From Chloroflexota bacterium (GTDB taxonomy: Bacteria > Bacteroidota > Ignavibacteria > Kapaibacteriales > UBA2268): a DNA stretch of 64,000 nt. The position numbers and the translations under genes were made by a program. Location of the stretch: NCBI GenBank assembly GCA_050260015.1, contig JBLNBN010000046.1:4699-68698 (forward strand), read 5' to 3'. Numbering within the stretch: position 1 is the stretch's first letter; every line of letters starts with the position of its first letter. Positions 151 to 37,772 of this stretch are shown here, piece by piece. The notes below the pieces were generated by a model. That model worked only from the letters and a program-made list of their open reading frames with translations. It had not been told where the DNA came from and did not search any database.

Positions 151-615
151 TTATATGCCAGACATTTTATTTATAATCGACGTGCTTGAACGCCCTGCGA
201 GGAAAGGGATTACAACTACCCTGCCCCCGCGGCTTTTAACGAAATCAGCGCCCACGATATCCTCCTCGCGGTAGTCGCCCCCTTTCACCAAAACGTCCGG
301 AGCGATTAATTCGATAAGGTCCTTTGGGGTGTCTTCCGTAAACTGGACGACGAGATCGACCGGCTTCAAGGCGTCGAGGACGGTCGCGCGGTCCTCCTCG
401 CTATTTATAGGTCTTGATTCGCCTTTTAGCCTTTTTACCGAAGCGTCCGAATTTAGGCCGACGATTAAGATATCCGCCAATTTTTTAGCTTCCCCCAGGT
501 AAGCTATATGCCCTGCGTGCAGCACGTCGAAGCAGCCGTTAGTAAAAGCGACCGTTAATCCGCGCTCGCGGGCCTGCTTTGCTACCTGCCCGGCAGCGTT
601 CCAGTCAAGAACCAA
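151..615 (-). CDS. rfaE2: D-glycero-beta-D-manno-heptose 1-phosphate adenylyltransferase (RfaE/HldE domain II, cytidylyltransferase fold)
   Basis: 154 aa. [13 protein letters not shown] nucleotidyltransferase motif. Start codon lies 1 nt after the stop of the upstream kinase ORF, as in a split HldE. Confidence 0.85.
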
Positions 616-616
616 T

Positions 617-1612
617 TTAGCGGCTCCCGTTTAGGTTTATAGAGTTTATTAGGTCTTCGGGTTCGATAGCTACTATGCCCGGTTTCTCGCATACTATGCC
701 CGAGGCGAAGTTGGCCATTGCTGCGGCTTCTTTTATTTTAGCGCCGCCGGCGATCGCTGCGGCGAGCGTGGCAATAGCCGTATCCCCGGCTCCCGATACG
801 TCGGCAACCTGGCGCGCGCGCGTGCGTACGCCGGAGACGTCGCCGCCGCGCTCGAAGAGAGTCATGCCTTCGGCGCCGAGAGTGATCAATACGTTCTCGC
901 AGTTAAGCAGGTTCAAGAGCTTCGCCCCCGCGGCCCGTATCGATTCTTTATCTGTCAGCTTGAAACCCAACGCCTTTTCGGCCTCTTTTCTATTGGGCTT
1001 AAAGAGGAAGCAATCTTTATAGGAAAAGAAGTTATCGAATTTCGGATCGACGAAGACCGGGATGCCCCGCTTCCTGCAGAAAGCGGAAACGCGTTCTATT
1101 AGTCTTCTCTCTATCGCGCCCTTATCGTAGTCTTCGAATATTACCCCGCTAAGGTTCTCGGCGGCTTCGAGCTTATCAATTATAAACTGCTCGCCAGCTT
1201 CGGAGAGAGGATTAGTAATTTCCCTGTCCAGGCGCGCTATATGTTGGTTGTTCCCTATTATTCTCGTTTTAACTGTCGTAGGCCGAACGTCGTCCGGGTA
1301 AAGCCCGTCAGTGTCTATGCCGGAGCCTCGGGCGATCTCGGTAAACGTCCTGCCGTAATAATCCGCGCCAATAACGCCGCATAGGAACGGGCGAGCGCCG
1401 AGCGTTTTCAAATTTTTGGCGACGTTAGCCGCGCCTCCAAGATGAAACGTTTCGCGTTCAATATCTATAACCGGTACGGGAGCTTCCGGGGATATGCGGC
1501 TAACGCTTCCCCAGAAATATCTATCCAGCATTACGTCGCCAATTACCGCTATGGACTTTCCCGATATGTTTGACAGGATGTCCTCAGCGCGTTTGCCGTT
1601 AAGTTTTACCAT
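617..1612 (-). CDS. rfaE1: D-glycero-beta-D-manno-heptose-7-phosphate kinase (RfaE/HldE domain I, PfkB sugar kinase)
   Basis: 331 aa PfkB-family kinase (GAGDT motif near the C-terminus). Immediately precedes the adenylyltransferase ORF. Confidence 0.85.
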
Positions 1613-1688: not shown

Positions 1689-2594
1689 TTACATCGATTC
1701 AGCAGATATTAGTTTATTTTGAAGTAAAGCCGCGTCGAGCGGGGTAAACTTTATATTAAGATCCGTTTCTGCCTTTAGGTTGATCAGTCCTCCCCTCTCA
1801 GGCCTTTTAGCGGATTGCTTCAACTCTTCCGGCGCTATCTTTATTATTAATTCCTGCGGAAGCCTTAAGGCGTTGGCAATGGCGACAGCTATTTCATAAC
1901 GCGAGAGATAGTCGGGGCCGGCGAAATTGAAAATGCCGATCCTGTTCTTTTCTATTAGCTTGAGCAAACCTCTCGCTATATCGACGTTAAGAGTTGGGTT
2001 GCAATACTGGCCGTCGACGACGCGGATCTCCGAGCCGTTTTTTAGCGAATTGATCACCCAATCAATAAAGTCGGTCTTTGCGAACGTCGCCTTTCCATAA
2101 ACTACATTTGTTCGGACGACGCAGGACTTATCGTGGTTATTAAGCGCATAGTTTTCCGCTGCGAGTTTCGTCTTCCCGTAATAATTCAGCGGCGACGGTT
2201 TAGCGGTCTCGCTGTAGGGGCCGGAGACCCCGTCGAATATGTAATCGGTGGATATCGTTATAAACTGCGCCTCGGTTACCTTGCTGATGTTCGTAAGGGT
2301 TTCAACCAGAGTAGTGTTCAGCTTGCGGCATTCCGTCTTTTCCGATTCGCAGAGATCTACGTTCGTCATTGCCGCGCAATTTATTATAGCAGTAGGTCGG
2401 AAATCGTATATCGCCCTCTTCAGGCTTTTCTTTTCCAGTATGTCTATTTGGTGATATTTCCCTTTATATAATAAGAAATTTGCTTCCCTTCTGCCGAGAG
2501 CCAGTATTTCGCAGTCGGCTTCCGTGGACGCAATATTGAAAAAGGCTTCGCCTACCCTGCCGGTCGCCCCGACAATGACTATTCTATGTTTCAT
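1689..2594 (-). CDS. rmlD: dTDP-4-dehydrorhamnose reductase family (RmlD-like SDR)
   Basis: 301 aa. N-terminal GATGRVG Rossmann motif, NCAAMTNVDLCE, STDYIFDG and YGKTKL motifs typical of RmlD. Confidence 0.75.
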   Translation of the reverse strand: MKHRIVIVGATGRVGEAFFNIASTEADCEILALGRREANFLLYKGKYHQIDILEKKSLKRAIYDFRPTAIINCAAMTNVDLCESEKTECRKLNTTLVETLTNISKVTEAQFITISTDYIFDGVSGPYSETAKPSPLNYYGKTKLAAENYALNNHDKSCVVRTNVVYGKATFAKTDFIDWVINSLKNGSEIRVVDGQYCNPTLNVDIARGLLKLIEKNRIGIFNFAGPDYLSRYEIAVAIANALRLPQELIIKIAPEELKQSAKRPERGGLINLKAETDLNIKFTPLDAALLQNKLISAESM

Positions 2595-2602
2595 ATTCTA
2601 AT

Positions 2603-2616
2603 GTTTCACGTGGAAC
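2603..2616. promoter_or_regulatory. Palindrome GTTTCACGTGGAAC 8 nt upstream of the rmlD start codon (copy 1 of 2)
   Basis: Near-perfect inverted repeat around a CACGTG core. Same motif and spacing as the copy upstream of mnmG. Confidence 0.5.
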
Positions 2617-2636
2617 AATTCGTTAAGCTTGAAAAT

Positions 2637-4493
2637 TTACCTTAAGAACACTGAAAGAGTCGCGACGTCCGCAGAGGAGACTCCGGAGATTCTCGACGCC
2701 TGGCCGAGAGAACGCGGCCTTACTTTCTTTAACTTTTCACGCGCCTCGTTCGAAAGCGAAGTTAATGCGTCGTAGTCTATGTGGTCCGGTATCCTTTTCT
2801 CTTCGTTTTCTTTAAAGTATTCTATCTCCCTTCTCTGACGTTCTATATAGCCTTCGTACTTTACTTCCCATTCCATTTTAAAAGTTTCTTCGTCAGTAAG
2901 GGCTAAATGCGTAAAGATATCCAGTGGAATGCGTTTTAGGAGGTCGCTCATATGAAAACCGCTTCGTTTCAAAAGCGTATATATGTCCGTAGTTTCAGCG
3001 ATAGGACTTTCGCCTATCTCGATTAAATATGGATTGACCTGGTTTGCCTTTAGCTTTACAGTTTTTAAGTACCCCAAGCCCTGGCCTACTTTATTGACGC
3101 TCTCGCAGACGGAAACGTAATCGCTCTCGGGCACGGTTCCGAGCTTAAAAGCGTATTTCATCAATCTTTCCCGGGCGTTGTCCTGTCTCAGCAACAATCT
3201 GTACTCGGCTAGAGAAGTAAAGATACGGTAGGGCTCCTCCGAACTCTTATTTACTAAGTCGTCGATTAGAACGCCGATGTAAGATTCGGAGCGGGAAAGA
3301 ACGAAGGGATCCATTCCCTTTGCCTTCAAAGCGGCGTTTATTCCCGCAATTAATCCCTGGGAGGCCGCTTCCTCGTACCCGCTCGTGCCGTTTATCTGGC
3401 CCGCAAAGAATAGCCCCGAGATATTTTTTGTTTCCAGCGTAAACTTTAATTGATACGGGAAAAAGAAATCATATTCAATCGCGTAACCTGGTCTAAGCAT
3501 AACGCAATTCTCAAGCCCCGGTATTTTCTTCAAGCCGCGCAACTGGACGTCGGCCGGCAAGCTCGTGGAATAACCGTTTACGTATGTAAAATTGGAATCC
3601 AACGCCTCGGGTTCAAGTAATATTTTATGCGATGTCCTATCGGCGAACCTGTTTATTTTATCCTCGATCGACGGGCAGTAGCGCGGTCCCGTTCCTTTTA
3701 TACGCCCGGTAAACATTGGCGATCTTTCAAAGCCCTCGCGGAGTACGTCGTGAACAGCTTCATTTGTTTCCGTCATAAAGCAATTTATTAAATTCTGAAC
3801 GGCTGGCGTTCCGTAGTGGAACGGCTGGGGTCTAAAATCGCCGGGCGCAATCGTTACCTTTTTATAGTCTATGCTCGCGGCGTGTACTCGCGGAGGGGTT
3901 CCCGTCTTTAAGCGGGATTTCTCCAGTCCGTGGCCGTTTAGCTTAGAAGATATCTTATCGGAGCTAGGTTCGTTAACCCTGCCGCCGCGGCTGGTCTCCT
4001 CCCCCGTATGCATTACCCCGTTTAGGAATGTGCCTGCGCAAAGTATGACCGTCGCGCCATATATTGAAGTCCCCTCAGACGTGACGACGCCTTTGACGGT
4101 ATAATTATCAACGATAACGTCGTCCGCCGCAGCCGTTATTATATCGAGATTCTCGGTCGCATTAAGCAGTTCGTTTGCAAAAACAGGATAAAGCTTTTTA
4201 TCGATTTGCGCGCGAGGCGACCAGATGGCGGGACCTTTTGATTTGTTCAGCATCTTGAATTGGAGCCCCGCGCGATCCGCCAGTATGCCCTGGGCTCCGC
4301 CGAGAGCGTCTATTTCCTTAACCAAGTGCCCCTTTGCCGCGCCGCCAATAGAAGGATTGCAGGAGGGCTTCCCTATCGTTGCGGGATTCATTGTGACCAG
4401 GGCAGTCCTGCAACCCAATAGGGCCGCTATTCTACCGGCTTCTATACCGGCGTGTCCCCCGCCGACGACTATTACATCATATTTTATCTTCAT
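2637..4493 (-). CDS. mnmG: tRNA uridine-5-carboxymethylaminomethyl(34) synthesis enzyme MnmG (GidA)
   Basis: 618 aa. N-terminal [19 protein letters not shown]-binding motif and overall GidA architecture. Confidence 0.95.
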
Positions 4494-4502
4494 ATATAAA
4501 TT

Positions 4503-4516
4503 GTTCCACGTGGAAC
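4503..4516. promoter_or_regulatory. Perfect 14-nt palindrome GTTCCACGTGGAAC, 9 nt upstream of the mnmG start codon, in the 24-nt mnmE-mnmG gap (copy 2 of 2)
   Basis: Seen directly in sequence. Candidate operator or RNA hairpin. Confidence 0.5.
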
Positions 4517-4517
4517 G

Positions 4518-5870
4518 TTACTTCCCAATGCAGTATTTCGAAAAAATGCTTTCTAAAACGTCACTATTGACGTTGTCGCCAGTTATTTCGTCCAATTTAG
4601 AAATTGCAGCCCGCACGTCGATAGCAATCACTTCGTTTTCGCGCGAATTTAAAAGGGCGAAGCGAGCCGAGACAAGGTTTTGTTTCGCTTCGTTCAGCAG
4701 GCCGAACTGGCGGGCGTTTAGAAGATACTCTTTTGCGCTGGCCCCGCTCTTAGCGGAGAGGGTGAAGAGCATTTCCTTGATTTCACTTACTCCGAAGCCT
4801 TTCCTCGCGGAAACTAAATTTTCTACGCCTTCGGGCGATCCGTCTTTAAGGCGATCAGCCTTATTTTGAACTAAGATTATCTCGGCTTCGGGGTATAGCT
4901 TTCCAATCTTTTCCCTTAGCGAATCGGAACGGCCAAAGCCGAGCGACGCGTCGTTTACTAGCACGATAGCGTTCGCTTGCGCCAGCATCGAGCGCACCAT
5001 TCTTATGCCTTCTATCTCGATTACGTCCGTCGCCTTGCGAAGGCCCGCCGTATCGAATATCTTGAACGGCAGAGAGCGTATGTAGGTGAATTCCTCCAGG
5101 TAGTCGCGCGTTGTTCCTGGGATCTTGCTTACAATGGCGCGCTTGCTCCCAATTATCGCGTTAAATAGGGTTGATTTCCCGGAGTTGGGATAGCCCGCAA
5201 TGCAGACCCTATACCCATTGCGGTATATCTCCGCGGCTTTATACGCGTCGGAGATGTTGTCGGAAAACGAAATAGCGTCTTCTATGAGCGCGATTAACTG
5301 GGCGCGGTCCACGAACTCGACGTCCTCGTCGGAAAAGTCGAGTTCGAGCTCCAATAGCGCGGCAATGCGCACTAAGTCGGAACGATAGTTCTTTATCTTA
5401 TTAGTAAAAGCCCCGAGCGATTGACGCGTGGAAGCCTGCGCGGAGGGTTCCGATATGGAATGAATAAGATCCGCTATAGCCTCCGCTTTAACAAGATCCA
5501 ACTTGCCGTTAAGAAATGCGCGGCGCGTAAATTCGCCGGGTTCGGCCGGGAAGGCGCCCTGCTTGAGCGTTTCGGCGATAATTTCCGAGCTGACGACGTA
5601 ACCGCCGTGGCAAGTTATCTCGACGACGTTCTCGCCGGTGTAGGAGCGGGGGGCGCGGAAGATGGAAACCGTCGCTTCGTCGATAACGTCGCCAGTTCCG
5701 GGGCTGATTATTTTACCGAACCAAATAGTGTTCGCCGGCGCCTCTGTCAATTTTACAGCGCCTTTAAATATCTTACCTGTTATCTCGAACGCTTCCGGTC
5801 CCGAGAGCCGTACGACGGCTAGTCCGGACACTCCGGCGGGGGTGGATAGCGCAACGATGGTTTTGATCAT
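4518..5870 (-). CDS. mnmE: tRNA modification GTPase MnmE (TrmE)
   Basis: G-domain motifs (GYPNSGKST, DTAG, NKAD) and C-terminal CIGK. The ORF track extends to 5912; the start is more likely the internal Met (MIKTIVALSTPAG) at 5870. Confidence 0.9.
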   Translation of the reverse strand: MIKTIVALSTPAGVSGLAVVRLSGPEAFEITGKIFKGAVKLTEAPANTIWFGKIISPGTGDVIDEATVSIFRAPRSYTGENVVEITCHGGYVVSSEIIAETLKQGAFPAEPGEFTRRAFLNGKLDLVKAEAIADLIHSISEPSAQASTRQSLGAFTNKIKNYRSDLVRIAALLELELDFSDEDVEFVDRAQLIALIEDAISFSDNISDAYKAAEIYRNGYRVCIAGYPNSGKSTLFNAIIGSKRAIVSKIPGTTRDYLEEFTYIRSLPFKIFDTAGLRKATDVIEIEGIRMVRSMLAQANAIVLVNDASLGFGRSDSLREKIGKLYPEAEIILVQNKADRLKDGSPEGVENLVSARKGFGVSEIKEMLFTLSAKSGASAKEYLLNARQFGLLNEAKQNLVSARFALLNSRENEVIAIDVRAAISKLDEITGDNVNSDVLESIFSKYCIGK

Positions 5871-6008
5871 GTTTATCTGTATATTAAAAATAAGGCTTAC
5901 TACGAACTTCAAAAATAATCAAAAAGGAGTTAATAATAAATTCCAAAAGACGGCGTAATTTTATGAAAAATAAAAACGTTTGCAAAGAAAATTTGTTAAA
6001 TTTGCGTT

Positions 6009-9425: not shown

Positions 9426-9646
9426 CGTTATACGCCAAATAAGCGATAAATCCGCTATGCGGGGCGCTTTAATATTCGTTTAATGGTGGAGCGGTCCGGT
9501 TACGAAAAGTTTAAGTGTAACTAAATTGCTTTTAATGTGTTATTTAATTTTGAGAATACAAAGAAATCGTTTAAATATTTCATAAAATTTTGATAAATTA
9601 TAATTCGGGAAAAGTGAATTTTCAAACTTTCTATAAAGGTATCAAT

Positions 9647-11791
9647 ATGAAGAGTATTACCCGTTTGGCAAAACTATTTGCCTTAGTTTCATTAACCGCG
9701 GTATCGGCATTCGCGGTTCCGCGGAACGTAGTTCTCGAGGAGTTCACTAACTCCTCCTGCGGCCCTTGCGCGGCTCAGAACCCCACATACCAGAAGTTCA
9801 TCTTCGATCGCTATTCGAACGTAATTCCTATTATGTATCATTCAAGCTTCCCGGGCGTGAACGACGTAATGTACCAGTTCGATAAACCAATGAACCAGAC
9901 CCGTACGAATTACTATGCAGTAGACGGCGTTCCTTCCGTTCGCGTCAACGGCGAAATGCAACCGAGCACGAATCCTCAACAAGTCTACGCCGGCTCCCCT
10001 ATGGATACGGTCGCAATCTGGAAGAAAGTTGCAACCGAGATAGTAGCGGAAACGCCTATCACTATCGGCGTTAACGCGACTATCGACGAAAACTACAAAA
10101 TGACTATCACCGGTAACGTTTCCTCGACCGAAGCTCTGTCCGGCAAGTATCTCCGCGTAGTTCTCGTAGAGGGTTATCATTACTATAAGCTCTCCGGCGG
10201 CACTAACGGCGAAGAAGATTTCTTCTTCGTAGCCCGCAAGATGTTCCCCGACGCGTCGGGCACGTCCGTTACTGTAGCGGCTAACGGCTCGCAAGAGTTC
10301 AATTTCACCTATGATATTCCTGAAGAACTCTACCACAAGACTCTTTATGTAGTCGCATTCGTCCAGGACGACGCTTCGAAGCAGATCCTCCAGGCCGCTC
10401 GCTCCAGCGCTCCCCTCGTTCAGAATGCAGCTTCGGCTCCCAAAATTTTCGCTTCCGTCGCTTCAACCGACACCTACCGTTCGATTGAAAAGGGCGAGCA
10501 GGAAAGCTATGAATATCAGATAAAGAACGAAACCTCGGAAAATATAACGGTCGCTTTGAAGGCCATTACAACGACTATCCCGCAGGGCTGGACGTTCAAC
10601 CTTGAACCCGATACATTAGTTATTCCCGCAGGCGCAACGCGCGGCGTTTCCGTTGCAGTTACTCCTCCGAACAAGACCGCTTCGGCTGAATTCTCCTTCA
10701 CGATCGAGCCTGTTGGCAGAACCGACGGATACAAAGCCTCGACGATGGGAACCAGCTTCTACATGACCGCCGGCACAAAGTATCTTAGCATATTAGGCGC
10801 ATCGAGACTTAGCGTATTGGGCGCGAACACTATGCTTAATTTGAACAACTACGGTTCCGAAACTTCCTGGATGCCCGCAGAATTCGGCGCAATGCAAGCG
10901 TTCCCGGCACAAAACTTTGACGTTATCGTTCTCCCGATGGACCTCAATTCGTTCCTCGCGCCCGTTTATACTACTCCCGAAGCGGCTACATATTTCCTTA
11001 ATTGGCTTAAGGCCGGTATGGACGCAGGCACGCACGTTTGGCTCTCCGGCGACTTAGCCGTAAACCTTCCGTATTTAGATCAATTTAAGAATACCGAAGT
11101 TCAAAATTTCTTCAAGGATTACTTCGGCGTTTCACAGGGCGCGTTCTATAACTTAGTACAAAGCGGCCAGCTCTATACACTGGACGTAAAGGGCAACCCC
11201 AACGACGAAACGACTAAAGGCATGACAATAAAGGTCAACGGCGATTACAATCAATCAAGCTGGCCTTACTACGAGCAATATGCGGAGTATGTAAATATTA
11301 CCAACGCGAATATCGCTACCCCGATCTTCTACGGCCCCGGCCAGAGCGGCGACGTAGTAATGGGCGTTAAGGTAGAGCGCACGCTTTCCGACAATTCGAA
11401 AGGCCGCGCAGTTTACACAGGTTTCAATCCTGAAATACTTGGCAACGCTACCCGCACGACTCTCTATACTGCGATTATGAACTGGCTCGTAAACGGCCCG
11501 GCCTCCGTTATAGAAGTTAACGGCGGCTCGCTGAACCTGACAGTCGGCCCGAACCCCGCGGTAGAAAACGCTAACGTTAGACTCGAGCTCAACGGTACGG
11601 CTTCCGCCCGCGCTGAAGTTTACGTTATCGACATGGCTGGCAAGCGCGTAGCTGAATTGCACAACGGCGCGATCTCCGAAGGCGTAAACGAATTCAATTT
11701 GAATTCCGCCCGCCTCGCTAACGGCAGCTACTTCGCTATCGTTAACGTCGACGGCAAGACGCTCGCAACCCCGTTCAACGTAGTAAAATAG
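9647..11791 (+). CDS. T9SS cargo protein: Omp28-like/thioredoxin-like N-terminal domain (CGPC motif), central beta-sandwich domains, C-terminal Por secretion tail
   Basis: Signal peptide MKSITRLAKLFALVSLTAVSAFA (track ORF starts at 9590; true start more likely 9647). EEFTNSSCGPCAA motif. C-terminus VYVIDMAGKRVAEL...FNVVK is a type-A T9SS CTD. Confidence 0.75.
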   Translation: MKSITRLAKLFALVSLTAVSAFAVPRNVVLEEFTNSSCGPCAAQNPTYQKFIFDRYSNVIPIMYHSSFPGVNDVMYQFDKPMNQTRTNYYAVDGVPSVRVNGEMQPSTNPQQVYAGSPMDTVAIWKKVATEIVAETPITIGVNATIDENYKMTITGNVSSTEALSGKYLRVVLVEGYHYYKLSGGTNGEEDFFFVARKMFPDASGTSVTVAANGSQEFNFTYDIPEELYHKTLYVVAFVQDDASKQILQAARSSAPLVQNAASAPKIFASVASTDTYRSIEKGEQESYEYQIKNETSENITVALKAITTTIPQGWTFNLEPDTLVIPAGATRGVSVAVTPPNKTASAEFSFTIEPVGRTDGYKASTMGTSFYMTAGTKYLSILGASRLSVLGANTMLNLNNYGSETSWMPAEFGAMQAFPAQNFDVIVLPMDLNSFLAPVYTTPEAATYFLNWLKAGMDAGTHVWLSGDLAVNLPYLDQFKNTEVQNFFKDYFGVSQGAFYNLVQSGQLYTLDVKGNPNDETTKGMTIKVNGDYNQSSWPYYEQYAEYVNITNANIATPIFYGPGQSGDVVMGVKVERTLSDNSKGRAVYTGFNPEILGNATRTTLYTAIMNWLVNGPASVIEVNGGSLNLTVGPNPAVENANVRLELNGTASARAEVYVIDMAGKRVAELHNGAISEGVNEFNLNSARLANGSYFAIVNVDGKTLATPFNVVK

Positions 11792-11946: not shown

Positions 11947-14214
11947 ATGAAAAAGCTACTCTACGCTTTCTTTGCGTTTACTTTTCTTTCGAGCTTTTCG
12001 GCTTTTGCCCAGAACGAGGTTATCGTACCGCCTTCGACGGCAAAATTGCCCAAGCTCGATAAAACACAAGCAGAGGGAAAGTACTACCTCATCTTCGACA
12101 ATCTGGACGTCGTTAAAGACGGCAGCGGCACGACAATAAGCAACGCTTTTGACTTGCTCTACTGGGACGGTCTCAAAAATTATCCGTCGTCCATGGACGA
12201 TTACCAAAAGTACTTCGTACGCGCGCCGTTCTCCGACGCAACGCTTAACGCTTACAACATACCCCAGGAATTCGACGTATTGGTGATCCCGGTTGGCGAT
12301 TACCCATTAAACATCGCAACTTCCACGAACGGCAAAAAGCTGATAACCCTAATTAAAGAAATGCTTTCCGCGGGAAAGAGCGTCTTTATTTCCGGTCGAC
12401 ACATACTTAAGTGGGCTTTTGCAAGCGATGCCCAGTTCGCGCAAGGTAAGGACCCGGAAGTTCAAACCTGGCTTACTTCCGACGTTGGGATCGACAAAAT
12501 TGCATTTCCTCCGGTCGTCCAGCAAAACGGCAACCAGCTCGAAACCGTAGGGTACAAACTTTTAACCAAGCAGGGCGACCCCGTAGGCAAGGGCTATGAG
12601 AAGTACATGAACATGATATTTACTACGCAGGATAATCAAGAACATCATCCGATGACCTATTACACTGTCATAGACGTCGTCACCGCGTTTAAAGATGGTT
12701 CGAAAGCAATTCCCGTAGATCACATTAACAGCTTAACGACGCCGATGGGATACATGAGCCTTCGCGGCGAAATCGGCGGCGGCAAGCTAGCGTTATACTT
12801 CTACGGCTACGAGAATTCCGCAGGCCACCCGTCCGGCGCGGTTCCTCCCGTTCTGCAGCTTCCGATGGACTGGTTCGTATCCGGTCTGCCGAAGAACGAG
12901 CCTTACCTTAAAGCCGAAAGCTACTCGGTCGAGTTTGGCGCGGTTAAATTAAATGAAACCAAGCAAGGCGAGTTCAGATTCCAGAACTTCAGCAGGAAGC
13001 CTCTCATTATCAGCAAGGTAGAGCTGGCCGGCCAAGAGCCCGCAGGCTCGTTTACGCTCGTCCACGGCGCGCTTCCGCTCACTATTCAACCGGGCGCATA
13101 CGATAAAATCATCATTAAATTTAAGCCTACGGTCGAACGCGATTATTCTGAAATTCTAAGCGTAACTTCTAACGCTTCCAACGAAGTAGTAGACATCGAC
13201 CTCACCGGCAACGGCGGCGAGATCCCGACGGACGGCCCGAGAATCTCCAGCATCCCCGAATTGAACTTCGAAAACGTTGAGTTCGGTTCGAAAAAGGATA
13301 TGGAGCTTACCATTACCAACACCGGTAAAGCTATACTCGACGTGCAGGAAGTCGAGCTCAGGGACAACAACAAGAACGCTTTTACGATCATCGCTCCCTC
13401 GCCGCTGCAGACTCCGTTTGGTTTGGGTCCCAACGAATCCAAAACTATCACTATTCGATTCGTGCCCGGCGAGAAGAACGCCACCTATACGGCGCGCGTT
13501 TACTACAAGAACAACGATCCTACGAAGAACGATTACTTTGTAAATATTACCGGTGCGAGCTCGGAATCCGGCTCGAGCGCTATATTAGAGTTCGACATGG
13601 ATACCGTTCAATTCGGAAAAGTTAAGCCGAACTTCTCGCAATCCAAGTCCGTCGTTATTCGCAATACCGGCACCGCCGTACTTAATATCAATATGATTGC
13701 GTTCGAGGCCAATGACTTGGGCATATTTGAATTAGTAGATCCTAAGATCGCTCCCGGCACGAAAGTCGCTATCGGCGATTCCGTAACCTTCAAGGTTAGA
13801 TTTAAACCGGACGAGGAAACGACCTACAACGAACGCATTATGGTTCAGACCAACGCTAAGAACGCAACGGATGGCGTTATTTACTTGAACCTGCAAGGCA
13901 CAGGTAGCTTCGCAGGCGTAAACGAACCTATTGCCAGCTCGCAAGACGGCTCGATCGTTCTAAAAGCGATCCCCCACCCGATTAGCGGCAACGGCTCAAT
14001 CGTTTGCGAGATCAAACGCGAGATGGCCGGCAACCTGGAAGTATTCGTAATCGACATGGCCGGGCGCCGCGTCGCGGACCTCTACAACGGTCTCGCCGCT
14101 CAAGGCTCGCTCACGCTGCCGATCAGCTCCGGCGCTAACGCCTCAGGCCAGTACTTCGTCATCGCTAACGCAGGCGGCTCATCCGTACGTCTGCCTATCA
14201 TATTCGTTAAATAA
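11947..14214 (+). CDS. T9SS cargo protein with three choice-of-anchor-D/ASH-like beta-sandwich repeats and C-terminal Por secretion tail; N-terminal region paralogous to the upstream cargo gene
   Basis: Signal peptide MKKLLYAFFAFTFLSSFSAFAQ. Repeated ...TNTGKAILDV/...RNTGTAVLNI/...QNFSRKPLII modules. C-terminus LEVFVIDMAGRRVADL...IIFVK. Confidence 0.75.
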   Translation: MKKLLYAFFAFTFLSSFSAFAQNEVIVPPSTAKLPKLDKTQAEGKYYLIFDNLDVVKDGSGTTISNAFDLLYWDGLKNYPSSMDDYQKYFVRAPFSDATLNAYNIPQEFDVLVIPVGDYPLNIATSTNGKKLITLIKEMLSAGKSVFISGRHILKWAFASDAQFAQGKDPEVQTWLTSDVGIDKIAFPPVVQQNGNQLETVGYKLLTKQGDPVGKGYEKYMNMIFTTQDNQEHHPMTYYTVIDVVTAFKDGSKAIPVDHINSLTTPMGYMSLRGEIGGGKLALYFYGYENSAGHPSGAVPPVLQLPMDWFVSGLPKNEPYLKAESYSVEFGAVKLNETKQGEFRFQNFSRKPLIISKVELAGQEPAGSFTLVHGALPLTIQPGAYDKIIIKFKPTVERDYSEILSVTSNASNEVVDIDLTGNGGEIPTDGPRISSIPELNFENVEFGSKKDMELTITNTGKAILDVQEVELRDNNKNAFTIIAPSPLQTPFGLGPNESKTITIRFVPGEKNATYTARVYYKNNDPTKNDYFVNITGASSESGSSAILEFDMDTVQFGKVKPNFSQSKSVVIRNTGTAVLNINMIAFEANDLGIFELVDPKIAPGTKVAIGDSVTFKVRFKPDEETTYNERIMVQTNAKNATDGVIYLNLQGTGSFAGVNEPIASSQDGSIVLKAIPHPISGNGSIVCEIKREMAGNLEVFVIDMAGRRVADLYNGLAAQGSLTLPISSGANASGQYFVIANAGGSSVRLPIIFVK

Positions 14215-15732: not shown

Positions 15733-16263
15733 ATGTCGAACGCCGAAGAGCGCCTAACGCTTAGCAGTAAAGCGCTCGTTCTGAATCAGAGCTACGAGCC
15801 AATAAGCGTCTGCTCGCCGCGTAAAGCTTTCATTTTGATTCTGCTAATGAAAGCGGAATTAGTCGCCGAAAGGCGGGGCCAATCCATTCGTTCCGTCAGC
15901 CAATCTTTCCCTCTTCCCTCGATTATTAGATTAACCGCGTTTTCTAAAGTTCCTAAAAGAAAAATAGAACTTTCCAGGAAGAACATAATCAAACGGGACG
16001 ACTTTCGTTGCCAGTACTGCGGCAAGAAATCGCCCCAGTTGACCGTGGACCATATCATCCCGAAATCGCGCGGCGGAATTGACTCCTGGGAGAATTTAGT
16101 TGCGGCATGCATAAAATGCAACAACAAGAAGGGCTCCCGAACGTTGGAAGAGGCTGGATTAAAGCTTCTCTCCAAGCCGAAAGCCCCGCACTACATAATG
16201 TTCCTTAAGCAATGCATAGGCAATGCCGAGGAGAGTTGGAAGCCGTTTCTCTTTATGGATTGA
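15733..16263 (+). CDS. HNH endonuclease family protein
   Basis: 176 aa. CQYCG...DHIIPKSRGG...WENL...C..CN..K HNH motif. Convergently overlaps the miaB 3' end by 11 nt. Confidence 0.75.
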   Translation: MSNAEERLTLSSKALVLNQSYEPISVCSPRKAFILILLMKAELVAERRGQSIRSVSQSFPLPSIIRLTAFSKVPKRKIELSRKNIIKRDDFRCQYCGKKSPQLTVDHIIPKSRGGIDSWENLVAACIKCNNKKGSRTLEEAGLKLLSKPKAPHYIMFLKQCIGNAEESWKPFLFMD

Positions 16264-24619: not shown

Positions 24620-26119
24620 ATGTTTAAAAAGATACTAATAGCAAACCGCGGGGAAATCGCGATAAGAATCATCCGCGCCGCTCGCGAGATGGGGATCGAG
24701 ACGGTTTCCGTCTACTGCGACGTCGATACGGGTTCCCCCTACGTTCAATATTCCGACTATTGTATAAAATTGAGCGGCGAAACTCCCCGCTCGTCTTATT
24801 TGGATATAGGGCAAATCATCGACGCCGCCCGGAGGACGAACGCGGAGGCCATCCATCCCGGCTACGGCTTTCTCTCGGAGAATGCGGAGTTTGCCGCGGC
24901 TTGCCGCGACGCAGGGATAGCGTTCATCGGTCCGCCGCCGGAATCTATCGAAGCGATGGGGGTTAAGACTAAAGCGCGCGAGATCGTTACGGCCAGCGGC
25001 GTGCCCGTAGTTCCCGGCACGACCTCGGCGATCGAGGACCCCGCGGAGGCGGAACGCATTGCGGGGGAAATAGGCTACCCGGTCCTGATAAAGGCCGCCT
25101 CGGGCGGGGGCGGTAAGGGAATGCGCCGGGTCGATTCCCCGGCCGACTTCGCCGACTCGTTCGAGGGCGCGCGACGCGAGGCGCTTAAATCGTTTGGAGA
25201 CGGATCAGTTTATCTAGAGAAATTTATAGAAAATCCAAAGCATATTGAAATACAATTCATTGCGGATTCGCACGGCCACTACGTCCACTTAGGCGAACGC
25301 GACTGCTCCATTCAGCGCCGCCATCAAAAAGTAATCGAGGAGGCCCCCTCGACTGTTCTCGACGAAGTACTTCGGGCTAAGATGGGCGAAGTCGCGCTCC
25401 AGGCGGCGCGCGCGGTAAACTACGTAAACGCTGGCACGGTGGAGTTCCTCTTCGATAGGAATAAGAACTTCTATTTCCTCGAGATGAACACCAGGCTGCA
25501 GGTGGAGCACCCCGTGACGGAGCTTGCGACGGGAATCGATATCGTAAAGGAGCAGATCTGCGTCGCGTGGGGGGACGAGCTCAGCTTTAAGCAGGAGGAC
25601 GTTCGCTTTAGCGGGCACGCCCTGGAGTGCCGCATTTACGCCGAGGATCCGTTTAATAATTTTATGCCCTCCACGGGAGTTCTTAGTTACGTGCGCCAGC
25701 CCGTCGGCTACGGCGTCCGCGTCGACAGCGGAATCGAAACGGGCAGCGAGGTAACCTTCCATTTCGACCCGATGCTGGCGAAACTGATTACTTTCGGTAA
25801 AGACAGGATAGAAGCCATCGCGAGGATGGAGACGGCCCTAAGGAATTACTATATAAAAGGCGTCGCAACGACTATCCCCTTCCAGCTTGCCGTTATGCAG
25901 CATCCCGAGTTTCGCTATGGCTACTTCGACACGGGCTTCATCGAGCGCTCCTTCGACTTCGAGGCGCTGCATAAAATGAAGCGCGAGAACGAGGAGACGA
26001 TCGCAGCTCTCGCCGCATTCGGCTATAGAATGCTCGCCCAACAGAAGGCCCCCATGAAGGCTAAGCCGTCGATAAGCAAATGGAAAGAAAAAAACTTACT
26101 TTTACGCAGACTCATCTGA
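24620..26119 (+). CDS. accC: Biotin carboxylase subunit of an acyl-CoA carboxylase (AccC family)
   Basis: 499 aa ATP-grasp biotin carboxylase (MFKKILIANRGEIAIRIIRA..., EMNTRLQVEHPVTE). Confidence 0.9.
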   Translation: MFKKILIANRGEIAIRIIRAAREMGIETVSVYCDVDTGSPYVQYSDYCIKLSGETPRSSYLDIGQIIDAARRTNAEAIHPGYGFLSENAEFAAACRDAGIAFIGPPPESIEAMGVKTKAREIVTASGVPVVPGTTSAIEDPAEAERIAGEIGYPVLIKAASGGGGKGMRRVDSPADFADSFEGARREALKSFGDGSVYLEKFIENPKHIEIQFIADSHGHYVHLGERDCSIQRRHQKVIEEAPSTVLDEVLRAKMGEVALQAARAVNYVNAGTVEFLFDRNKNFYFLEMNTRLQVEHPVTELATGIDIVKEQICVAWGDELSFKQEDVRFSGHALECRIYAEDPFNNFMPSTGVLSYVRQPVGYGVRVDSGIETGSEVTFHFDPMLAKLITFGKDRIEAIARMETALRNYYIKGVATTIPFQLAVMQHPEFRYGYFDTGFIERSFDFEALHKMKRENEETIAALAAFGYRMLAQQKAPMKAKPSISKWKEKNLLLRRLI

Positions 26120-26128
26120 GAGGCAATA

Positions 26129-26659
26129 ATGCAAGAAATAGCCCTTACTATCAGCGGGACGGAATTCGTAGCGAAATTTTCCAAAACGAATTACTCCAAC
26201 GTTGCGATAAACGACAAATTTTATCATATAGAGCTACTAAAAAAATTCGGGGAGAATATCTTCTCCTTTTCAGTGAACCAAAAGCTCGCTCAAATCGAGA
26301 TGGACTTTAGCGGCGGCGATACGTTGAACATTTCTATGGACGGAATGCTTTACGAGGTGAAGGTGGCTACCTCTACGAAAAAGCTTCTTGAAAAATACCT
26401 CAAGGAGAGCGGCCGGGAGAACTCGGGCGGGATAATTAACATAGTCGCCAATATGCCCGGGATGGTGCTGAAAGTCTTTCCAAACGAAGGCGGGCTGACG
26501 CTGGAGGGCGATCGGCTTATGATAATCGAGGCGATGAAGATGGAAAACATAATGAAAGCTCCCAGGACGGGACGCGTTAAGAAAATCTATGCGAGAGAAG
26601 GTACCCCGGTTAACAAGGGGGAATTATTAATGGAAATCGATACGACAAAGGAGGCGTAA
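26129..26659 (+). CDS. Biotin carboxyl carrier protein (biotinyl-domain protein)
   Basis: 176 aa. C-terminal biotinylation motif IIEAMKMEN. Confidence 0.8.
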   Translation: MQEIALTISGTEFVAKFSKTNYSNVAINDKFYHIELLKKFGENIFSFSVNQKLAQIEMDFSGGDTLNISMDGMLYEVKVATSTKKLLEKYLKESGRENSGGIINIVANMPGMVLKVFPNEGGLTLEGDRLMIIEAMKMENIMKAPRTGRVKKIYAREGTPVNKGELLMEIDTTKEA

Positions 26660-26662
26660 TAT

Positions 26663-28270
26663 ATGGATGAATTCGCTGAAATAACAAAGAACGAACGCGT
26701 TCATGCCGACGATCATATAAAGCGGATAGACGATAAGCTGGAGCAACTGCGCGCCAGGAAAGATACTGCCCAGCAGGGCGGCGGCAGGGTAAAAACTGAC
26801 GCCCAGCATGCGAAAGGTAAGCTGACGGCTCGCGAAAGAGTCGACCTTTTAATGGATTCGGGCACGTTCCGCGAGCTCGACGCTTTGGCGCACCATCACT
26901 CTACGGAGTTCGGTCTCGGCGAGTCGGTTTTCTACGGCGACGGGGTCGTGGCGGGCTACGGCGAGATCGGCGGGGAAAAAGCGTTTATTTTCTCGCAGGA
27001 CTTCAGCGTACTCGGCGGCAGCCTCGCGGAGATGCACGGCAAGAAGATATGCAAGATAATGGACCTGGCCTTAAAGACTGGCGCGCCAGTAATAGGGCTG
27101 AACGATTCCGGCGGAGCCCGCGTGCAGGAGGGCATCCAATCGCTCGGCGCTTACGCCGAAATATTCCTACGCAATACGCTCGCCTCGGGCGTCGTCCCGC
27201 AAATATCAGTTATAATGGGCCCCTGCGCCGGCGGAGCAGTATACTCCCCCGCCATAACGGACTTTGTTATCATGGTCCGAAATTCCTCCTATATGTTCGT
27301 GACGGGCCCGAAGGTCGTAAAGGCGACAACCCACGAAACGTTGACGAGCGAGCAGCTAGGGGGGCCGGAAGTTCACGCCGAGCGCAGCGGGGTCGCGCAC
27401 TTCGTCGCGCAGAACGACATGGAAGCTCTCTCGATAGTTAAGAAATTGCTCTCTTATATCCCCGCCAATAACGCCGAGGAGCCCCCGTTCGTGCCGAACA
27501 ACGATCCGACCGACCGCGTAAGCGAGGAGCTGAACTACATCGTTCCGGCCAATCCCAACCAGGCTTACGACATGAAGGAGATAATTACGAAATTGGCCGA
27601 CATGGGCGAATTCCTGGAAGCGCACAAGGATTGGGCCCAGAACATAATCGTCGGCTTTATTCGTCTCGGGGGACGGTCCGTGGGCGTAGTGGCGAATCAG
27701 CCGCAGCATTTGGCCGGCGCGCTCGATATCAATTCCTCGCGGAAGGCGGCGCGTTTCGTTCGCTTCTGCGACGCGTTCAATATTCCTATATTAACGTTAG
27801 TCGACGTGCCGGGGTTCCTGCCGGGCAGCGACCAGGAGTGGAACGCGATAATAACCAACGGCGCAAAGCTGCTTTATGCTTACTGCGAGGCCACGACGCC
27901 GAAGGTTACCGTAATCACGCGGAAAGCTTACGGCGGAGCCTACGACGTGATGTCGAGCAAGCACATCCGCGGCGATATAAACTTCTGCTGGCCGACGGCT
28001 GAGATAGCCGTTATGGGGGCGAAGGGCGCGATCGAAATAATATTTAAAAAAGAGATCGATTCCTCCGGTAAGCCTGCGGAAAAGGCGGCCGAGCTCGAGG
28101 AATTTTACAAGGAGAAGTTCGCCAATCCTTATATAGCGGCATCCTACGGGTACGTGGACGACGTAATCGAGCCGCGCTACACGCGCGCCGCGTTAATAGA
28201 CGCGTTCCAGCTGCTGCAGAACAAGGTGGATAAGAATCCGCCGAAAAAACACGGCAACATTCCACTATAA
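26663..28270 (+). CDS. Acyl-CoA carboxyltransferase subunit (propionyl-CoA carboxylase beta / methylmalonyl-CoA decarboxylase alpha, 12S family)
   Basis: 535 aa. Paralogous to the 514-aa ORF at 37773..39317. Confidence 0.85.
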   Translation: MDEFAEITKNERVHADDHIKRIDDKLEQLRARKDTAQQGGGRVKTDAQHAKGKLTARERVDLLMDSGTFRELDALAHHHSTEFGLGESVFYGDGVVAGYGEIGGEKAFIFSQDFSVLGGSLAEMHGKKICKIMDLALKTGAPVIGLNDSGGARVQEGIQSLGAYAEIFLRNTLASGVVPQISVIMGPCAGGAVYSPAITDFVIMVRNSSYMFVTGPKVVKATTHETLTSEQLGGPEVHAERSGVAHFVAQNDMEALSIVKKLLSYIPANNAEEPPFVPNNDPTDRVSEELNYIVPANPNQAYDMKEIITKLADMGEFLEAHKDWAQNIIVGFIRLGGRSVGVVANQPQHLAGALDINSSRKAARFVRFCDAFNIPILTLVDVPGFLPGSDQEWNAIITNGAKLLYAYCEATTPKVTVITRKAYGGAYDVMSSKHIRGDINFCWPTAEIAVMGAKGAIEIIFKKEIDSSGKPAEKAAELEEFYKEKFANPYIAASYGYVDDVIEPRYTRAALIDAFQLLQNKVDKNPPKKHGNIPL

Positions 28271-28522: not shown

Positions 28523-31500
28523 GTGAAAAAGAGAATTTTAACCGCATTTTTATACGCAGCATGCGCCTCTTTACCGATCGGCATGGCGCTGCAGGCTGCA
28601 TTAACGGCGGCGACAGATATAATTCCGGAGAGCGTTGTCTTCCGTAGCGCGGCTATGGGCGTTTTGGGAGCGTTTGGTCCTAATTTATTCCTCCTTCTTG
28701 GAGCCCAGGTCCCGACGACCCAAACTCCAGCGGACAGCGCCGCTCCTCCGCGCTCCGTGCGCTACCGGCAGCTTACTACTCCATCGCGACCCACGGAGGA
28801 CGAAATCCGATTCGGGCGCGACGCGGCAAATCTTCCCCGCGGGTACAGATCAAATTACGACGTCGATTCTGTCGGGGGCTCGGTCTATTCGCAGAGATCG
28901 ATCGACTCCTTCCGCCTGGGCTACGGCTATTCCATCGACCTGGACACATACCTCGGTAAAAGGCGCGCTCAAATCCAAAATGGTATTTGGGATTCGTTGC
29001 TCACGAGCTACGACATGAAGAAAGCTCTTTCCCGCGGCGATTTGTCCCGTATGGTCGCTCAAGCGACGGGATTTTCCATCCCGATACCGCCCAACCCCAT
29101 AAGCAGCATCTTCGGCAAGCCCGAAATAAGCATTAACGTAAACGGCGAAGTTAACCTTCGCGTGGGCTGGCGCTGGGATTCGCAGAACCTCGGAACGGTG
29201 TCCGCATACGGCCAGACGCAGAGCTCGCCGATATTCAACCAGGACATCAAGCTCGACATAAGCGCCAAGATAGGCGACAAATTAAAGCTCGGCACGAATT
29301 GGAACACGCGACAGGCATTCGACTACGACAATCAATTTAAGCTTGGCTACGAGGGCTACGACGACGATATTATCAAGCGCGTCGAGTTCGGCAACGTTAA
29401 CTTCCCGATCCCGTCGACCTTGATCGGCGGCGGTCAGGCCCTCTTCGGCGTGCGGAGCGACTACCAGTTCGGCCCGCTGTACCTTAAGACGGTATTCTCG
29501 CAACGTCGGGGCCAGCGAAAATTCGTGGACGTGCGCGGCGGCTCGAACAGGCAGCCTTTCCAGGTCCGCGCCTACGACTACTCGCGCAACCACTTCTTCC
29601 TCGACACTGGCTACAAGCAAATTTACGACGATTACTTTAAGAACGGAACTCCAATAATCCCGAACACGCCCCGCGCGCGGGAAATGGCCATCAAGCAGAT
29701 AGAGGTCTGGGAGGCTACGACCGACGTCGCCGAGCAGGCTATTCGCTCAGCTCGTTCGGTCGCGATTGCGGACCTTCCCGGCAAGCGCCGTAGGCTCGGC
29801 GAAAACTGGACGTTCGCGGAAAAGGCGCAACCTACGCAATCCGGCTTAGTCGAGCGCGGAAACTTTATTCGCCTGGACACGAACAGCTACCGCGTAGATA
29901 TGAACTTGGGCACGCTAACGCTTTATTCTATGCGGCAGGACAGGTACTACGCCGTCTCCTACCGCACCGAGGGCGCCACCCCGGACTCTGCGGACGACGT
30001 CTACTACGGCACGTTCGCCAACCAGGTTGGGGAACTCGATACTCTGCTCCTGAAGCTCGTTTACAGACCTAATATACAGCCGGCCTGGAAAAGCATATGG
30101 AGCCGGCAGATGAAGAATATATACTCAATAAACGCGACGAACGTTTCCACTACCGACACGCGCATTTCGCTCTGGTACATTCGCCAGAGCAACGACTCCG
30201 CCGACGTGCTGGAAGGCGCGCCCGACAAGCTCGTCACTATATTCGGGGTGGACCGTATGAACGTTTCCGCGGGAACCGCCACGCCCGACGGCGTGTTCGA
30301 CCTTCGCCCGCCGTTCTTCGACGCGCAGCGGGGCGAGATCACATTCCCAAGCGCCGAGCCGTTCGGCGACGGCTTGAGGCGTTACTTCTCGCGGCTGGGC
30401 AACCCGGAGCTTGCCGAGCTCTATACGTTCGACCAGGTATACGACACGACTTACGACATAGCGGCGCGAAACACCGCGCGCGATAGATTCGTAATTTCGG
30501 GCGAAGTGACGGGACGCGCTACGAACAACATTTCGCTCGGGGCGTTTAACCTCGCGCCCAACAGCGTTCGCGTATCGCTCGACGGGGTCACGCTCCGCGA
30601 GAACGACGACTACCGCGTCAACTATTATTCGGGAACGCTTACTATATTGAACCCCCGCGCCTCGCTTCCGAACGCGAATCTTAGGGTCGAGTACGAGCAG
30701 CAGGATATGTTCAACGTATCGACGAAAACGCTTGCAGGATTGCGCGCGGACTATACCTTGATCAAGGCGCGAACGGCGAACATGGGCCTGGGCTTTACCT
30801 TTATGCATTACGACCAGTCGGCGACGATAGACCGCGTGCGCCTCGGCGACGAGCCCGTCTCGAACACGATGTTCGGATTCGATACAAAGCTGAATTGGGA
30901 AACGCCATGGATGACGCGCGCGTTGGACCTTTTGCCGTTTTACGAGACGAAGGCCCCGTCCTCGATGTCGCTCGGCGGCGAATGGGCGATGATGCTGCCG
31001 CTGCCGAACAAGCGCCGCTCGGAAATCGCTTCCGACAATAGCGAGCCCGTCGTTTTCATAGACGACTTCGAGGGGGCGCAACGCTACGTTCCGCTTGGCA
31101 TAAACACCAGCCTTTGGACGCATTCCGCCCCGCCTGTCGCTCCCGATATTGATTCCACCGGAAGCGGGGTGAACAACTATCGCGGACGGCTCTACTGGTG
31201 GCAATTCTTCAACCCGAGAGTTCCCATTAAAGAGGTTTATCCGAAAAACGAGTCCTTCCAGCAGGGCAGGATGAATCTCGGGCCGCTTTACGTTAATTTC
31301 GATCCGGACTATCGGGGTATATACAATCGCAACCCGGAGTACACCGATCCGCTCAGCAAGCAGTATTATGATTCGTTGAATCCCTACGCATCCAGGCCCG
31401 AAATCAGGAAAAAGACCTGGGCTGGATTCCAGAGGCTGCTCTCCTCGTTTTATACGAACTTCGATGCGGACAACATCGAGTATATCGAAATAACGATGAG

Positions 31501-34500
31501 CGTGGGCAATCGCGAAGGCTCTACAAAAATGTTTATCGATTTAGGGCAGATCAGCGAGGACATTATTCCAAACGGATCGCTCAACACCGAGGACGGCATT
31601 ACCGACAAAGTTCGCATTCCCAACGGTATAATCGACGTTGGCGAGGACGTAGGTATCGATTCTCTCTCCGACGCCAACGAAAAAATAATGTATCCCTTCC
31701 CTCTCAACCAGGAAGACGACCCCTCGAGGGATAATTACTATTTTGACTTTAATAAGGACGACCGCGAACGCGGTCCTTCGGATTTCTTGCGGTACAACAA
31801 CTACGAAGGAAATTCGACCCAATCCGAGCTCGGGCAGTTCCCCGACACGGAAATCATGAATTCGACTAACGGGCAATCTCTTTCGCTGGACAACAGCTAC
31901 TTTACGTACGAAGTGAACCTTGAGCCGAACCCGGACCTGAACTCGCAGATCGTGGGCGGCAATCCTGAGGCCGGGTGGCTGGTTTACCGGATACCCGTGC
32001 GCAAACCAACTAGCTTCGTCGGAGCCCCGCTGTTCTCAAATATTCAATACGCTCGCGTGCGATTCCAGGGCGGAAGGTTCGAAGCCCGCATCGTGGACTG
32101 GAAGCTTGTCGGCTCGCAGTGGCAACGTATCAGCAATTTGCAGAACGTGCCGGCGAACGATTCAACGCTTCAGCTCTCCTTCGTCAATCTCTGGGAGAAT
32201 TCCGGCGAGCCCGAGTTCTACTCGATGCCCCCCGGCGTTCGCGCGCCGAGAGAGCTGAACAATCCCGACCCGACGCAGGACATTCGCAAGAACGAGCAGT
32301 CGCTCGCCGTTTCCGTCCGCAATCTAAAGTTCGGCGAGGAACGGATGACGACGCGCATATTCCACCCGCTGGATATTTTCTTCTATAAAAAATTGAAATT
32401 TTTTATCCACGGCGACGGCGCTATGCCGGACAATTCTCTTCCCGGGGCAACGCCCAAAGCGTACGCCTATATGAGATTCGGGACCGATTCGCTTAACTAC
32501 TACGAGTACCGCAGGCCTCTCGTCCGCGGTTGGCAGGATATTGAAATAAACCTGACCGAACTGACGGAGGTAAAGCAGAGACGCGATTCGACGATGCAGT
32601 ACGACCGCCAGACTTTCCCGCTGAGAAACGATCCGCTGGCGACGTTCTCTATCCGCGGCAATCCCGTGCTGACGAGAGTGCAATTCTTCGGCGTTGGTAT
32701 CTCCAATCCTGCGGAGCGCTTCCCCAATGAATTGACTACGACTATGTGGGTGGACGAACTGCGCCTGATAAGCCCGGAGGACGCCTCCGATTGGGCCGCC
32801 GTCGGCAACTTCGACATGAAGCTGGCCGACCTCGGCTCTATCTCCGCCTCGATACAGAATTCGATGCCGAACTTCCATAAGCTCGAGGAGCGATTCGGGC
32901 GGCGCATCGGCTCGGTTAATTGGGCCGTCAGCATGCAGGGCAATTTGGAGAAATTCGCCCCGAAGAGCTTTAACGGAATGCGCATACCAATTTCATATTC
33001 GCACTCGGAGCTGGCAGAAGAGCCGGAATTCGTCGCCAATAACGATGTTAATCTCGACCGCGCGGTAGCGGTCGCTAAGCAAAACGCATACGCCCAGGCA
33101 AAGAGCGGCGGACTTTCGGAATCGGAAGCCCAGGCTCTGGCAAGCTCGGCTGAACGCGCCACTCGCTCGCGTTCGCAATCCCTGCGGGTCCAGGACAGCT
33201 GGGCTCTTACGGGAGTTAAATTAGGGCTCCCCACGAACGAATGGTATATCCGTGAGACGGTTAATAGGTTAACCGTAGGGTACTCCTATTCGCAGGAGAT
33301 GGAGCGATCCCCGGTTTATACGCAACGGTTCAACTGGCAGTGGAGGCTCGGCGCGCAATACAACGTGCAGGTGCCCCCGATCGCCGCCTTCGCTCCTCTG
33401 AAATGGGCGGACAGCCTGCCCGGGCTCGGGTACTTCAGCAAGTGGAAGATCAACCTGCTGCCGACGAGCTTCTCGACGGGAGTGGATCTCGCCCGCCGCC
33501 GCCAGACGGAGCAATCGCGCTTCCTCGACTTCCCAAGCCCGGTCGTTCGCGACTTTTCGGCCAATCGCACCGCGCAAATGGCCTGGAAGCTGACCGAAGG
33601 CGGCTTATTGAATCCCCTGGTGGACTATAGCGTTACGACTATCAGCACGCTTGTGCCCTTCGAACTAGAGCCAAATGGCAGGCAGCGCACCGGTTCAGAA
33701 TTGGCCAGCCAGATACTGTTCAAGGACGGCGCTATATTCGACTTCGGCAAGAACAGCCAGCATACGCAAAACGTTACGATTAACTTTAAGCCGCGACTGC
33801 CTATCGGCGTCGCCGCGGAGTATCTCGATATGACCGGCTCGTTCAACACTGTTTACTCCTGGAGCGATCCTTTGCAACCCGATCCGGCTATCCGCGACAT
33901 CGCGAAGAACGCGTCGTACAATAATCAAATTCGATACAATACCGTATTCAAGATAAAGCAATTGGGCGACAAGCTCTACGGCGCGCGTAAAACCGCGCTC
34001 GGCCCGAAGGCCGACAGCGCGCGCGCCTCTATGAACTCCGACTTCGACAATATTATTCGCGGGTTGTTCTTCGACTGGGAGAACATGAACCTGACGTTTA
34101 GCCAGACCTCCAGTTCGAACAACCCCGGCGTCTACGGCGGGAACGGTATGAATAACTTCTGGGGACGCGGCCTGCTCTTCCAGAACAGCCGGGCGATCTA
34201 CGGACCGAGCTTCGCCTATCAATTGGGCCTGATTGACGATCCGCATGGCACGATCGGCGTAGTGCCGAGCTCGACCTTCCCCTATATCGGCTTTAGGACG
34301 AAAATGGGCAAGCGCCCGCCGAACGCCGTGCTGCAGGACAACTTCCGCCAGCAGACGGGGCTGGAGCTCCGCACCTCGCGACCGCTCTGGGAAGGCGCCA
34401 CGCTCGACGTCAACTGGAAGACCGATCTCGGTTTCAACCGGAACCAAACGATCAATACGGACGAATTCGGCAACGTACGCATCTCTAATAAAAACGCGAC

Positions 34501-37755: not shown

Positions 37756-37772
37756 TTGTTACCTCCCTTTTA

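Follow-up and report, generated by a model that had tools for sequence, protein, structure and literature searches.

What are two nearly identical palindromes doing just ahead of two start codons within a single string of genes on the minus strand? The question is posed by a 64-kb stretch of DNA from an uncultured Kapabacteria/Ignavibacteria-like bacterium (the window, by which we mean the whole of the stretch analysed), in which the palindromes lie on either side of mnmG. A preliminary description of this DNA suggested that they were either a translational operator or processing site, controlling the genes of an operon differentially by way of an mRNA hairpin at each copy, or the target of a dimeric DNA-binding protein; the canonical parS sequence went unrecognised there. 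The features that enter the argument are these, with parS assignments that are predictions justified below:

4518-5912, minus strand: mnmE (trmE), with Pfam TrmE_N, MnmE_helical and MMR_HSR1 domains; the upstream neighbour, given for context only.
4502-4517, no strand assigned: predicted parS site TGTTCCACGTGGAACG, in the 24-nt mnmE-mnmG gap; its 14-bp core is a perfect palindrome.
2637-4493, minus strand: mnmG (gidA), Pfam GIDA, E = 5.9e-149; bracketed by the two predicted parS sites, an anchor for synteny that lies outside the element proper.
2602-2617, no strand assigned: predicted parS site TGTTTCACGTGGAACA, in the 42-nt mnmG-rmlD gap; half-sites GTTTCAC and GTTCCAC.
1689-2594, minus strand: gene for an RmlD-family reductase, Pfam RmlD_sub_bind, E = 4.9e-60; the downstream neighbour, given for context only.
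617-1612, minus strand: gene for a PfkB-family kinase (ORF listing and Pfam).
151-615, minus strand: gene for a cytidylyltransferase (ORF listing and Pfam).

The geometry of the preliminary description is borne out by the sequence, the ORF listing and Pfam: the coordinates of the motif, the order of the genes, the gaps of 24 nt (4494-4517) and 42 nt (2595-2636), and the distances from motif to ATG, which are 9 nt before mnmG (4494-4502) and 8 nt before the rmlD-like gene (2595-2602). The two 14-mers, GTTTCACGTGGAAC at 2603-2616 and GTTCCACGTGGAAC at 4503-4516, had also been called identical. In the window sequence they differ at position 4, which is T in the first and C in the second, and the GTTCCACGTGGAAC copy is the only perfect palindrome, as had been said of 4503-4516. 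The two sites are 1.9 kb apart.

Read as 16-mers, both sites are within one mismatch of the consensus for chromosomal parS, TGTTNCACGTGAAACA, or of a published variant of it. The one at 4502-4517, TGTTCCACGTGGAACG, is letter for letter the M. xanthus parS consensus (PMC7022226) and has a single mismatch to TGTTNCACGTGNAACA; the one at 2602-2617 has none. For B. subtilis and C. glutamicum the consensus is TGTTNCACGTGAAACA, and for P. aeruginosa and P. putida it is TGTTCCACGTGGAACA (PMC7022226). The window sites thus present the same 16-bp inverted repeat as the Spo0J sites of B. subtilis (Lin and Grossman 1998; Livny et al. 2007, both as cited in PMC7022226), with zero or one mismatch. They also use GTTCCAC, the G-containing half-site typical of Pseudomonas (the TGTTCCACGTGGAACA variant); in P. 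aeruginosa both GTTCCAC and GTTTCAC are found as parS half-sites (PMC7022226). The parS sites of gut bacteria, including those of Bacteroides caecimuris, have been detected as TGTTTCACGTGAAACA with at most two mismatches, and ParABS homologs together with 1-10 clustered parS sites were reported in all 12 gut species examined, B. caecimuris again among them (PMC10197239).

Because the 16-mers are identical to known parS sites, are conserved as symmetric DNA at mnmG, are present in low copy number and lie near a cluster of DnaA boxes, we conclude that the two palindromes beside mnmG are very probably canonical chromosomal parS sites, for which we infer origin-proximal loading of ParB and a part in segregation. 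The pair is an element already known, and no new translational control signal. Of the two possibilities raised earlier, a dimeric DNA-binding protein was correct in kind, since parS is the binding site of a ParB dimer.

The low copy number is readily seen. At up to two mismatches, the window's 64 kb hold only these two sites, against a mean of 0.48 strand-matches in shuffled sequence, and in this respect the earlier judgement that the pair exceeds chance is upheld. No third 16-mer lies within three mismatches of TGTTNCACGTGNAACA anywhere in the window, and no additional parS site occurs in a further 10 kb past its left edge, which are covered by L083, a Logan contig from this organism. Avoidance of a restriction site at CACGTG was considered as a separate matter and rejected: the hexamer occurs 4 times in the window against 5.98 in dinucleotide shuffles, so that it is not under-represented and there is no anomaly to explain.

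Exact copies of the locus were found only in short Logan contigs (runs SRR240858xx-859xx), and the closest relatives by MnmG, which are 51-63% identical, come from MAGs labelled Kapaibacterium, Ignavibacteria or Chlorobiota. With MnmG as the anchor we fetched 82 loci, 1.45 Mb in total, 80 of them from relatives and two being contigs from the organism itself. TTYCACGTGRAA is present in 69 of these loci (67 of the 80 relatives and both of the organism's own contigs), with 141 copies in the 1.45 Mb against roughly 0.35 expected by chance from simple arithmetic; the motif is thus conserved in orthologous loci, a point on which the preliminary description had made its own reading depend. When sites with at most one mismatch to the 16-mer consensus are counted over about 20 kb per locus, 136 of 137 lie beside or inside mnmG. 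Few copies, clustered in one region, is therefore the pattern within the 64 kb, the adjoining 10 kb and the 1.45 Mb of relatives' loci. In some 11 relatives the neighbourhood of mnmG lacks any parS-like site, and placement at this gene is common, not universal.

Most relatives have a counterpart of the 4502-4517 site ahead of mnmG. Three arrangements are seen. In the first, shared by the window, one site precedes mnmG and one lies just past its stop codon; a site in the latter position is found in about 40 relatives, and an rmlD-like gene comes after mnmG in many. In the second, found in more distant relatives, both sites precede mnmG. The third is confined to two loci (L024 and L028), where mnmG is followed by some 530 bp of non-coding sequence with 5-6 exact sites, and these arrays resemble known parS clusters. 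With gene coordinates anchored by tblastn, the sites of the relatives lie anywhere from 1 to 1493 nt upstream of the mnmG start codon and from 0 to 725 nt downstream of the gene, and in two relatives a site falls inside the mnmG coding region. The matched distance to the two start codons had been offered as an argument against chance. It carries little weight, because a gap of 24 nt has room for a 16-bp site only at 0-8 nt from the ATG, and the spacing is not kept in orthologs. That both sites stand so close ahead of a start codon is a consequence of their retention in very short intergenic gaps; the spacing itself has no function.

In a logo of the 137 sites the information is high for exactly 16 bp, with two-fold symmetry; T occupies -2 in 111 sites, and A occupies +13 in 111. 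Of the asymmetric cores, 28 face one way and 20 the other relative to mnmG, and there is no strand preference. The commonest 16-mer among the 137 sites is TGTTTCACGTGAAACA (38 copies); others are TGTTCCACGTGGAACA (25 copies), TGTTCCACGTGAAACA (16 copies) and TGTTTCACGTGGAACA, the sequence found at 2602-2617 in the window (14 copies). Among the relatives the site is thus conserved as symmetric double-stranded DNA, regardless of strand, spacing or coding context. The same logo has a weak T-A-A preference just 5' of the site, which we take, by inference, to be the TAA stop codon of the upstream gene abutting it.

The genes mnmE and mnmG are classic members of the origin region, and a candidate origin lies close by. 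The 20.5 kb of L083 contain five DnaA boxes with no more than one mismatch, and all of them fall within 171 bp (13901-14071 of that contig; window coordinates equal 10616 minus L083 coordinates), in a 347-bp gap between rpiB and serS. An AT-rich stretch follows the boxes, and two of the five match TTWTNCACA exactly. A distance of 5.9 kb separates the cluster from the nearer parS site. The boxes lie just beyond the left edge of the window, within which there is no such cluster. Twelve relatives have at least four DnaA boxes per 600 bp within 10 kb of mnmG, and in 7 of these 12 the cluster is beside serS or rpiB. We regard the rpiB-serS cluster as a candidate oriC, a designation based solely on the boxes; GC skew over the short stretches read is uninformative for the position of the origin. 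The notion that the palindromes are themselves inverted pairs of DnaA boxes was rejected, given that the match to parS is exact and that true DnaA-box clusters are found elsewhere.

The genes for the partition proteins were sought near the sites. No ParA, ParB or DnaA gene was detected with Pfam in the 64-kb window, nor is there one in the 10 kb past its left edge on L083; about 74 kb of this genome were read in total, and no ParB gene is in them. Regular expressions for ParB signatures had no match in six-frame translations of the window and the 82 loci, and regular expressions and tblastn found no ParA, ParB or DnaA within 10 kb of mnmG in the 80 relatives; the tblastn searches, which used approximate Spo0J and Soj queries, returned nothing at E <= 1e-3 and only noise at E <= 10. 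We assume that the organism has a cognate ParB, a protein with a helix-turn-helix and a GERRxRA CTPase motif, because chromosomal par genes are near-universal in their distribution (PMC7022226).

If the sites function as parS does elsewhere, each would be a 16-bp centromere-like sequence to which a ParB (Spo0J) dimer binds through its helix-turn-helix domains. CTP-bound ParB would load there, close as a clamp and slide onto the flanking DNA; in this way a partition complex would form close to the origin of replication, and ParA would move that complex so that sister origins are segregated. The complex would also load the SMC condensin. Clamp loading by CTP-bound ParB, outward sliding, movement by ParA and SMC loading belong to the general ParABS mechanism (PMC7022226). 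Like the parS sites of chromosomal ParABS systems, those described here are few, lie in the trmE/gidA region of origin genes and have a DnaA-box cluster nearby. They also differ. In many model species parS is in or next to gidAB-parAB, whereas here parA and parB are not adjacent and were not found within the regions read; and M. xanthus has 22 clustered sites, compared with two in the window and arrays of 5-6 only in L024 and L028.

The placement of the sites leads one to consider a second, local role, in which ParB, bound to parS directly where mnmG and the rmlD-like gene begin, would damp or time their transcription in addition to acting in segregation. The sites are 8-9 nt from start codons, and across the deep Kapabacteria/Ignavibacteria clade, with MnmG only 51-63% identical, a parS pair bracketing or preceding mnmG has long been kept. 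There is also a precedent in P. aeruginosa, where parS3 and parS4 are likewise immediately upstream of genes (PA0011 and PA0013) and ParB bound at them represses those genes (PMC7022226). Unlike those repressor sites, the sites described here do not have a conserved spacing to their genes among relatives, in which the distance to the start codon runs from 1 to 1493 nt; in B. subtilis, moreover, loss of Spo0J leaves the expression of parS-adjacent genes unchanged (PMC7022226). We consider such a local role unlikely. A more specific version, in which the parS pair doubles as a cell-cycle-linked operator and the ParB clamp couples transcription of mnmG and the downstream envelope-sugar genes to segregation or to CTP state, is a speculation that we hold to be quite unlikely.

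An operator for a dedicated dimeric transcription factor other than ParB, controlling mnmG throughout the clade, would explain why the palindrome adjoins one particular gene in most relatives. Such a factor is very improbable, given that the 16-mer coincides with the universal parS consensus, the outer T and A included. Many copies of the site lie past the mnmG stop codon, five or six sites in 530 bp are more readily seen as a centromere cluster than as an operator, and the DnaA-box cluster nearby is conserved.

The idea of an mRNA hairpin 5' of the AUG that serves as a translational operator or is processed by an RNase fares worse still, and we give it hardly any credence. Both copies do lie in untranslated gaps of a single gene string, and the transcript of the perfect copy can form a stem of 5 bp closed by a 4-nt loop, a weak fold of -4.7 kcal/mol. 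For the copy that precedes rmlD, which reads GUUCCACGUGAAAC on the mRNA, the minimum free energy is 0 and there is no fold; the 66-67 nt leaders are no more structured than shuffled sequences (z = +0.18 and +0.33). A hairpin at each copy is thus not supported. Differential control of the operon's genes at the level of RNA is likewise disfavoured by the variable spacing, the exact two-fold symmetry of the conserved sequence, the lack of strand bias and the two relatives with a site within the mnmG coding region; the sequence, moreover, is identical to a well-characterised DNA site, parS (PMC7022226). Nor does the motif substitute for a ribosome-binding site: a Shine-Dalgarno-like sequence precedes only 16 of the 42 window genes, so that mnmG and rmlD are unexceptional for this organism in lacking one. 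Rfam finds two tRNAs and nothing else in the window, with no RNA family at either site. Pairing of the two copies over a distance, as an RNase III stalk around mnmG, was also entertained and dropped, since many relatives have both copies upstream or have arrays, and there is no strand bias.

That the palindromes are a chance match or a dispersed REP-like repeat, abundant and randomly placed, has only the shortness of the motif in its favour and can be given practically no probability in view of two copies in 64 kb, where about 0.5 strand-matches are expected at two mismatches, and of the near-exclusive placement at mnmG in relatives.

As parS, the two sites would show where the centromere region near the origin lies in an uncultured Kapabacteria-like genome, and their import for this genome goes little beyond annotation. 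Together with the DnaA-box cluster outside the window, they may offer a practical anchor for locating oriC in the MAGs of this clade, and the fact that parS stays linked to mnmG in the clade, with parAB apparently elsewhere, makes a small note in comparative genomics. We suggest that a striking palindrome found before start codons be compared first with the parS consensus. As to the organism, Pfam finds T9SS sorting domains, SprA and Omp28 among the proteins of the window, and these point to the FCB group.

A candidate replication origin lies outside the window, on L083, a Logan contig from the same organism that continues 10 kb past the window's left edge:

L083 13901-14135: DnaA-box cluster and AT-rich stretch, in the rpiB-serS intergenic gap, ~3.3-3.5 kb beyond the window's left edge

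Five DnaA-box-like 9-mers (TTTTCCACA twice, TTCTCCACA twice and ATATCCACA once) fall inside 171 bp of this gap, the AT-rich stretch comes after them, and comparable clusters adjoin serS or rpiB in seven relatives. This cluster may be oriC.

Most relatives carry just two parS sites per locus, whereas two loci, L024 and L028, possess arrays of 5-6 exact cores in a non-coding stretch of ~530 bp that lies downstream of mnmG:

L024 12069-12600: parS array
L028 12069-12595: parS array

The L024 array holds an extra copy with one mismatch, TGTTCCACGAGAAACA, at ~12401. In two other relatives, L052 and L081, a TTYCACGTGRAA site lies within the mnmG coding sequence, ~1367 nt into the gene and at an identical relative position in both, either added to the intergenic sites or replacing them.

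Beyond the rmlD-like gene, the window's minus strand continues with a pair of ORFs separated by a single base (615/617), which resemble bifunctional HldE split into two genes, one for its heptose kinase half and one for its adenylyltransferase half:

151-1612 (-): PfkB-family kinase ORF and cytidylyltransferase ORF

Shine-Dalgarno usage is low in the FCB group, and the window fits this habit: a Shine-Dalgarno-like motif no more than 20 nt from the start occurs in only 16 of its 42 likely genes.

Elsewhere in the window, genes for biotin-dependent acyl-CoA carboxylase occur as two distinct sets, and a very large ORF has a SprA_N domain, that of the T9SS translocon; Por_Secre_tail sorting domains occur on several further ORFs (9590-11791, 52566-53987).

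24620-28270 (+): biotin carboxylase, biotinyl carrier and carboxyltransferase
37438-39317 (-): second carboxyltransferase and biotinyl protein
28523-35401 (+): SprA_N-domain ORF, 2292 aa

A 101-aa ORF in gene-poor surroundings (49.3-50.9 kb) matches only positions 49-121 of the 121-position Y1 transposase profile, and probably represents the remnant of a truncated IS200/IS605 element. A stand-alone HNH endonuclease ORF overlaps the end of a convergent gene by 11 nt.

50030-50335 (+): IS200-like Y1 transposase match, C-terminal part only
15733-16263 (+): HNH endonuclease ORF, 176 aa
16253-17626 (-): radical-SAM methylthiotransferase-like gene, convergent with the HNH endonuclease ORF
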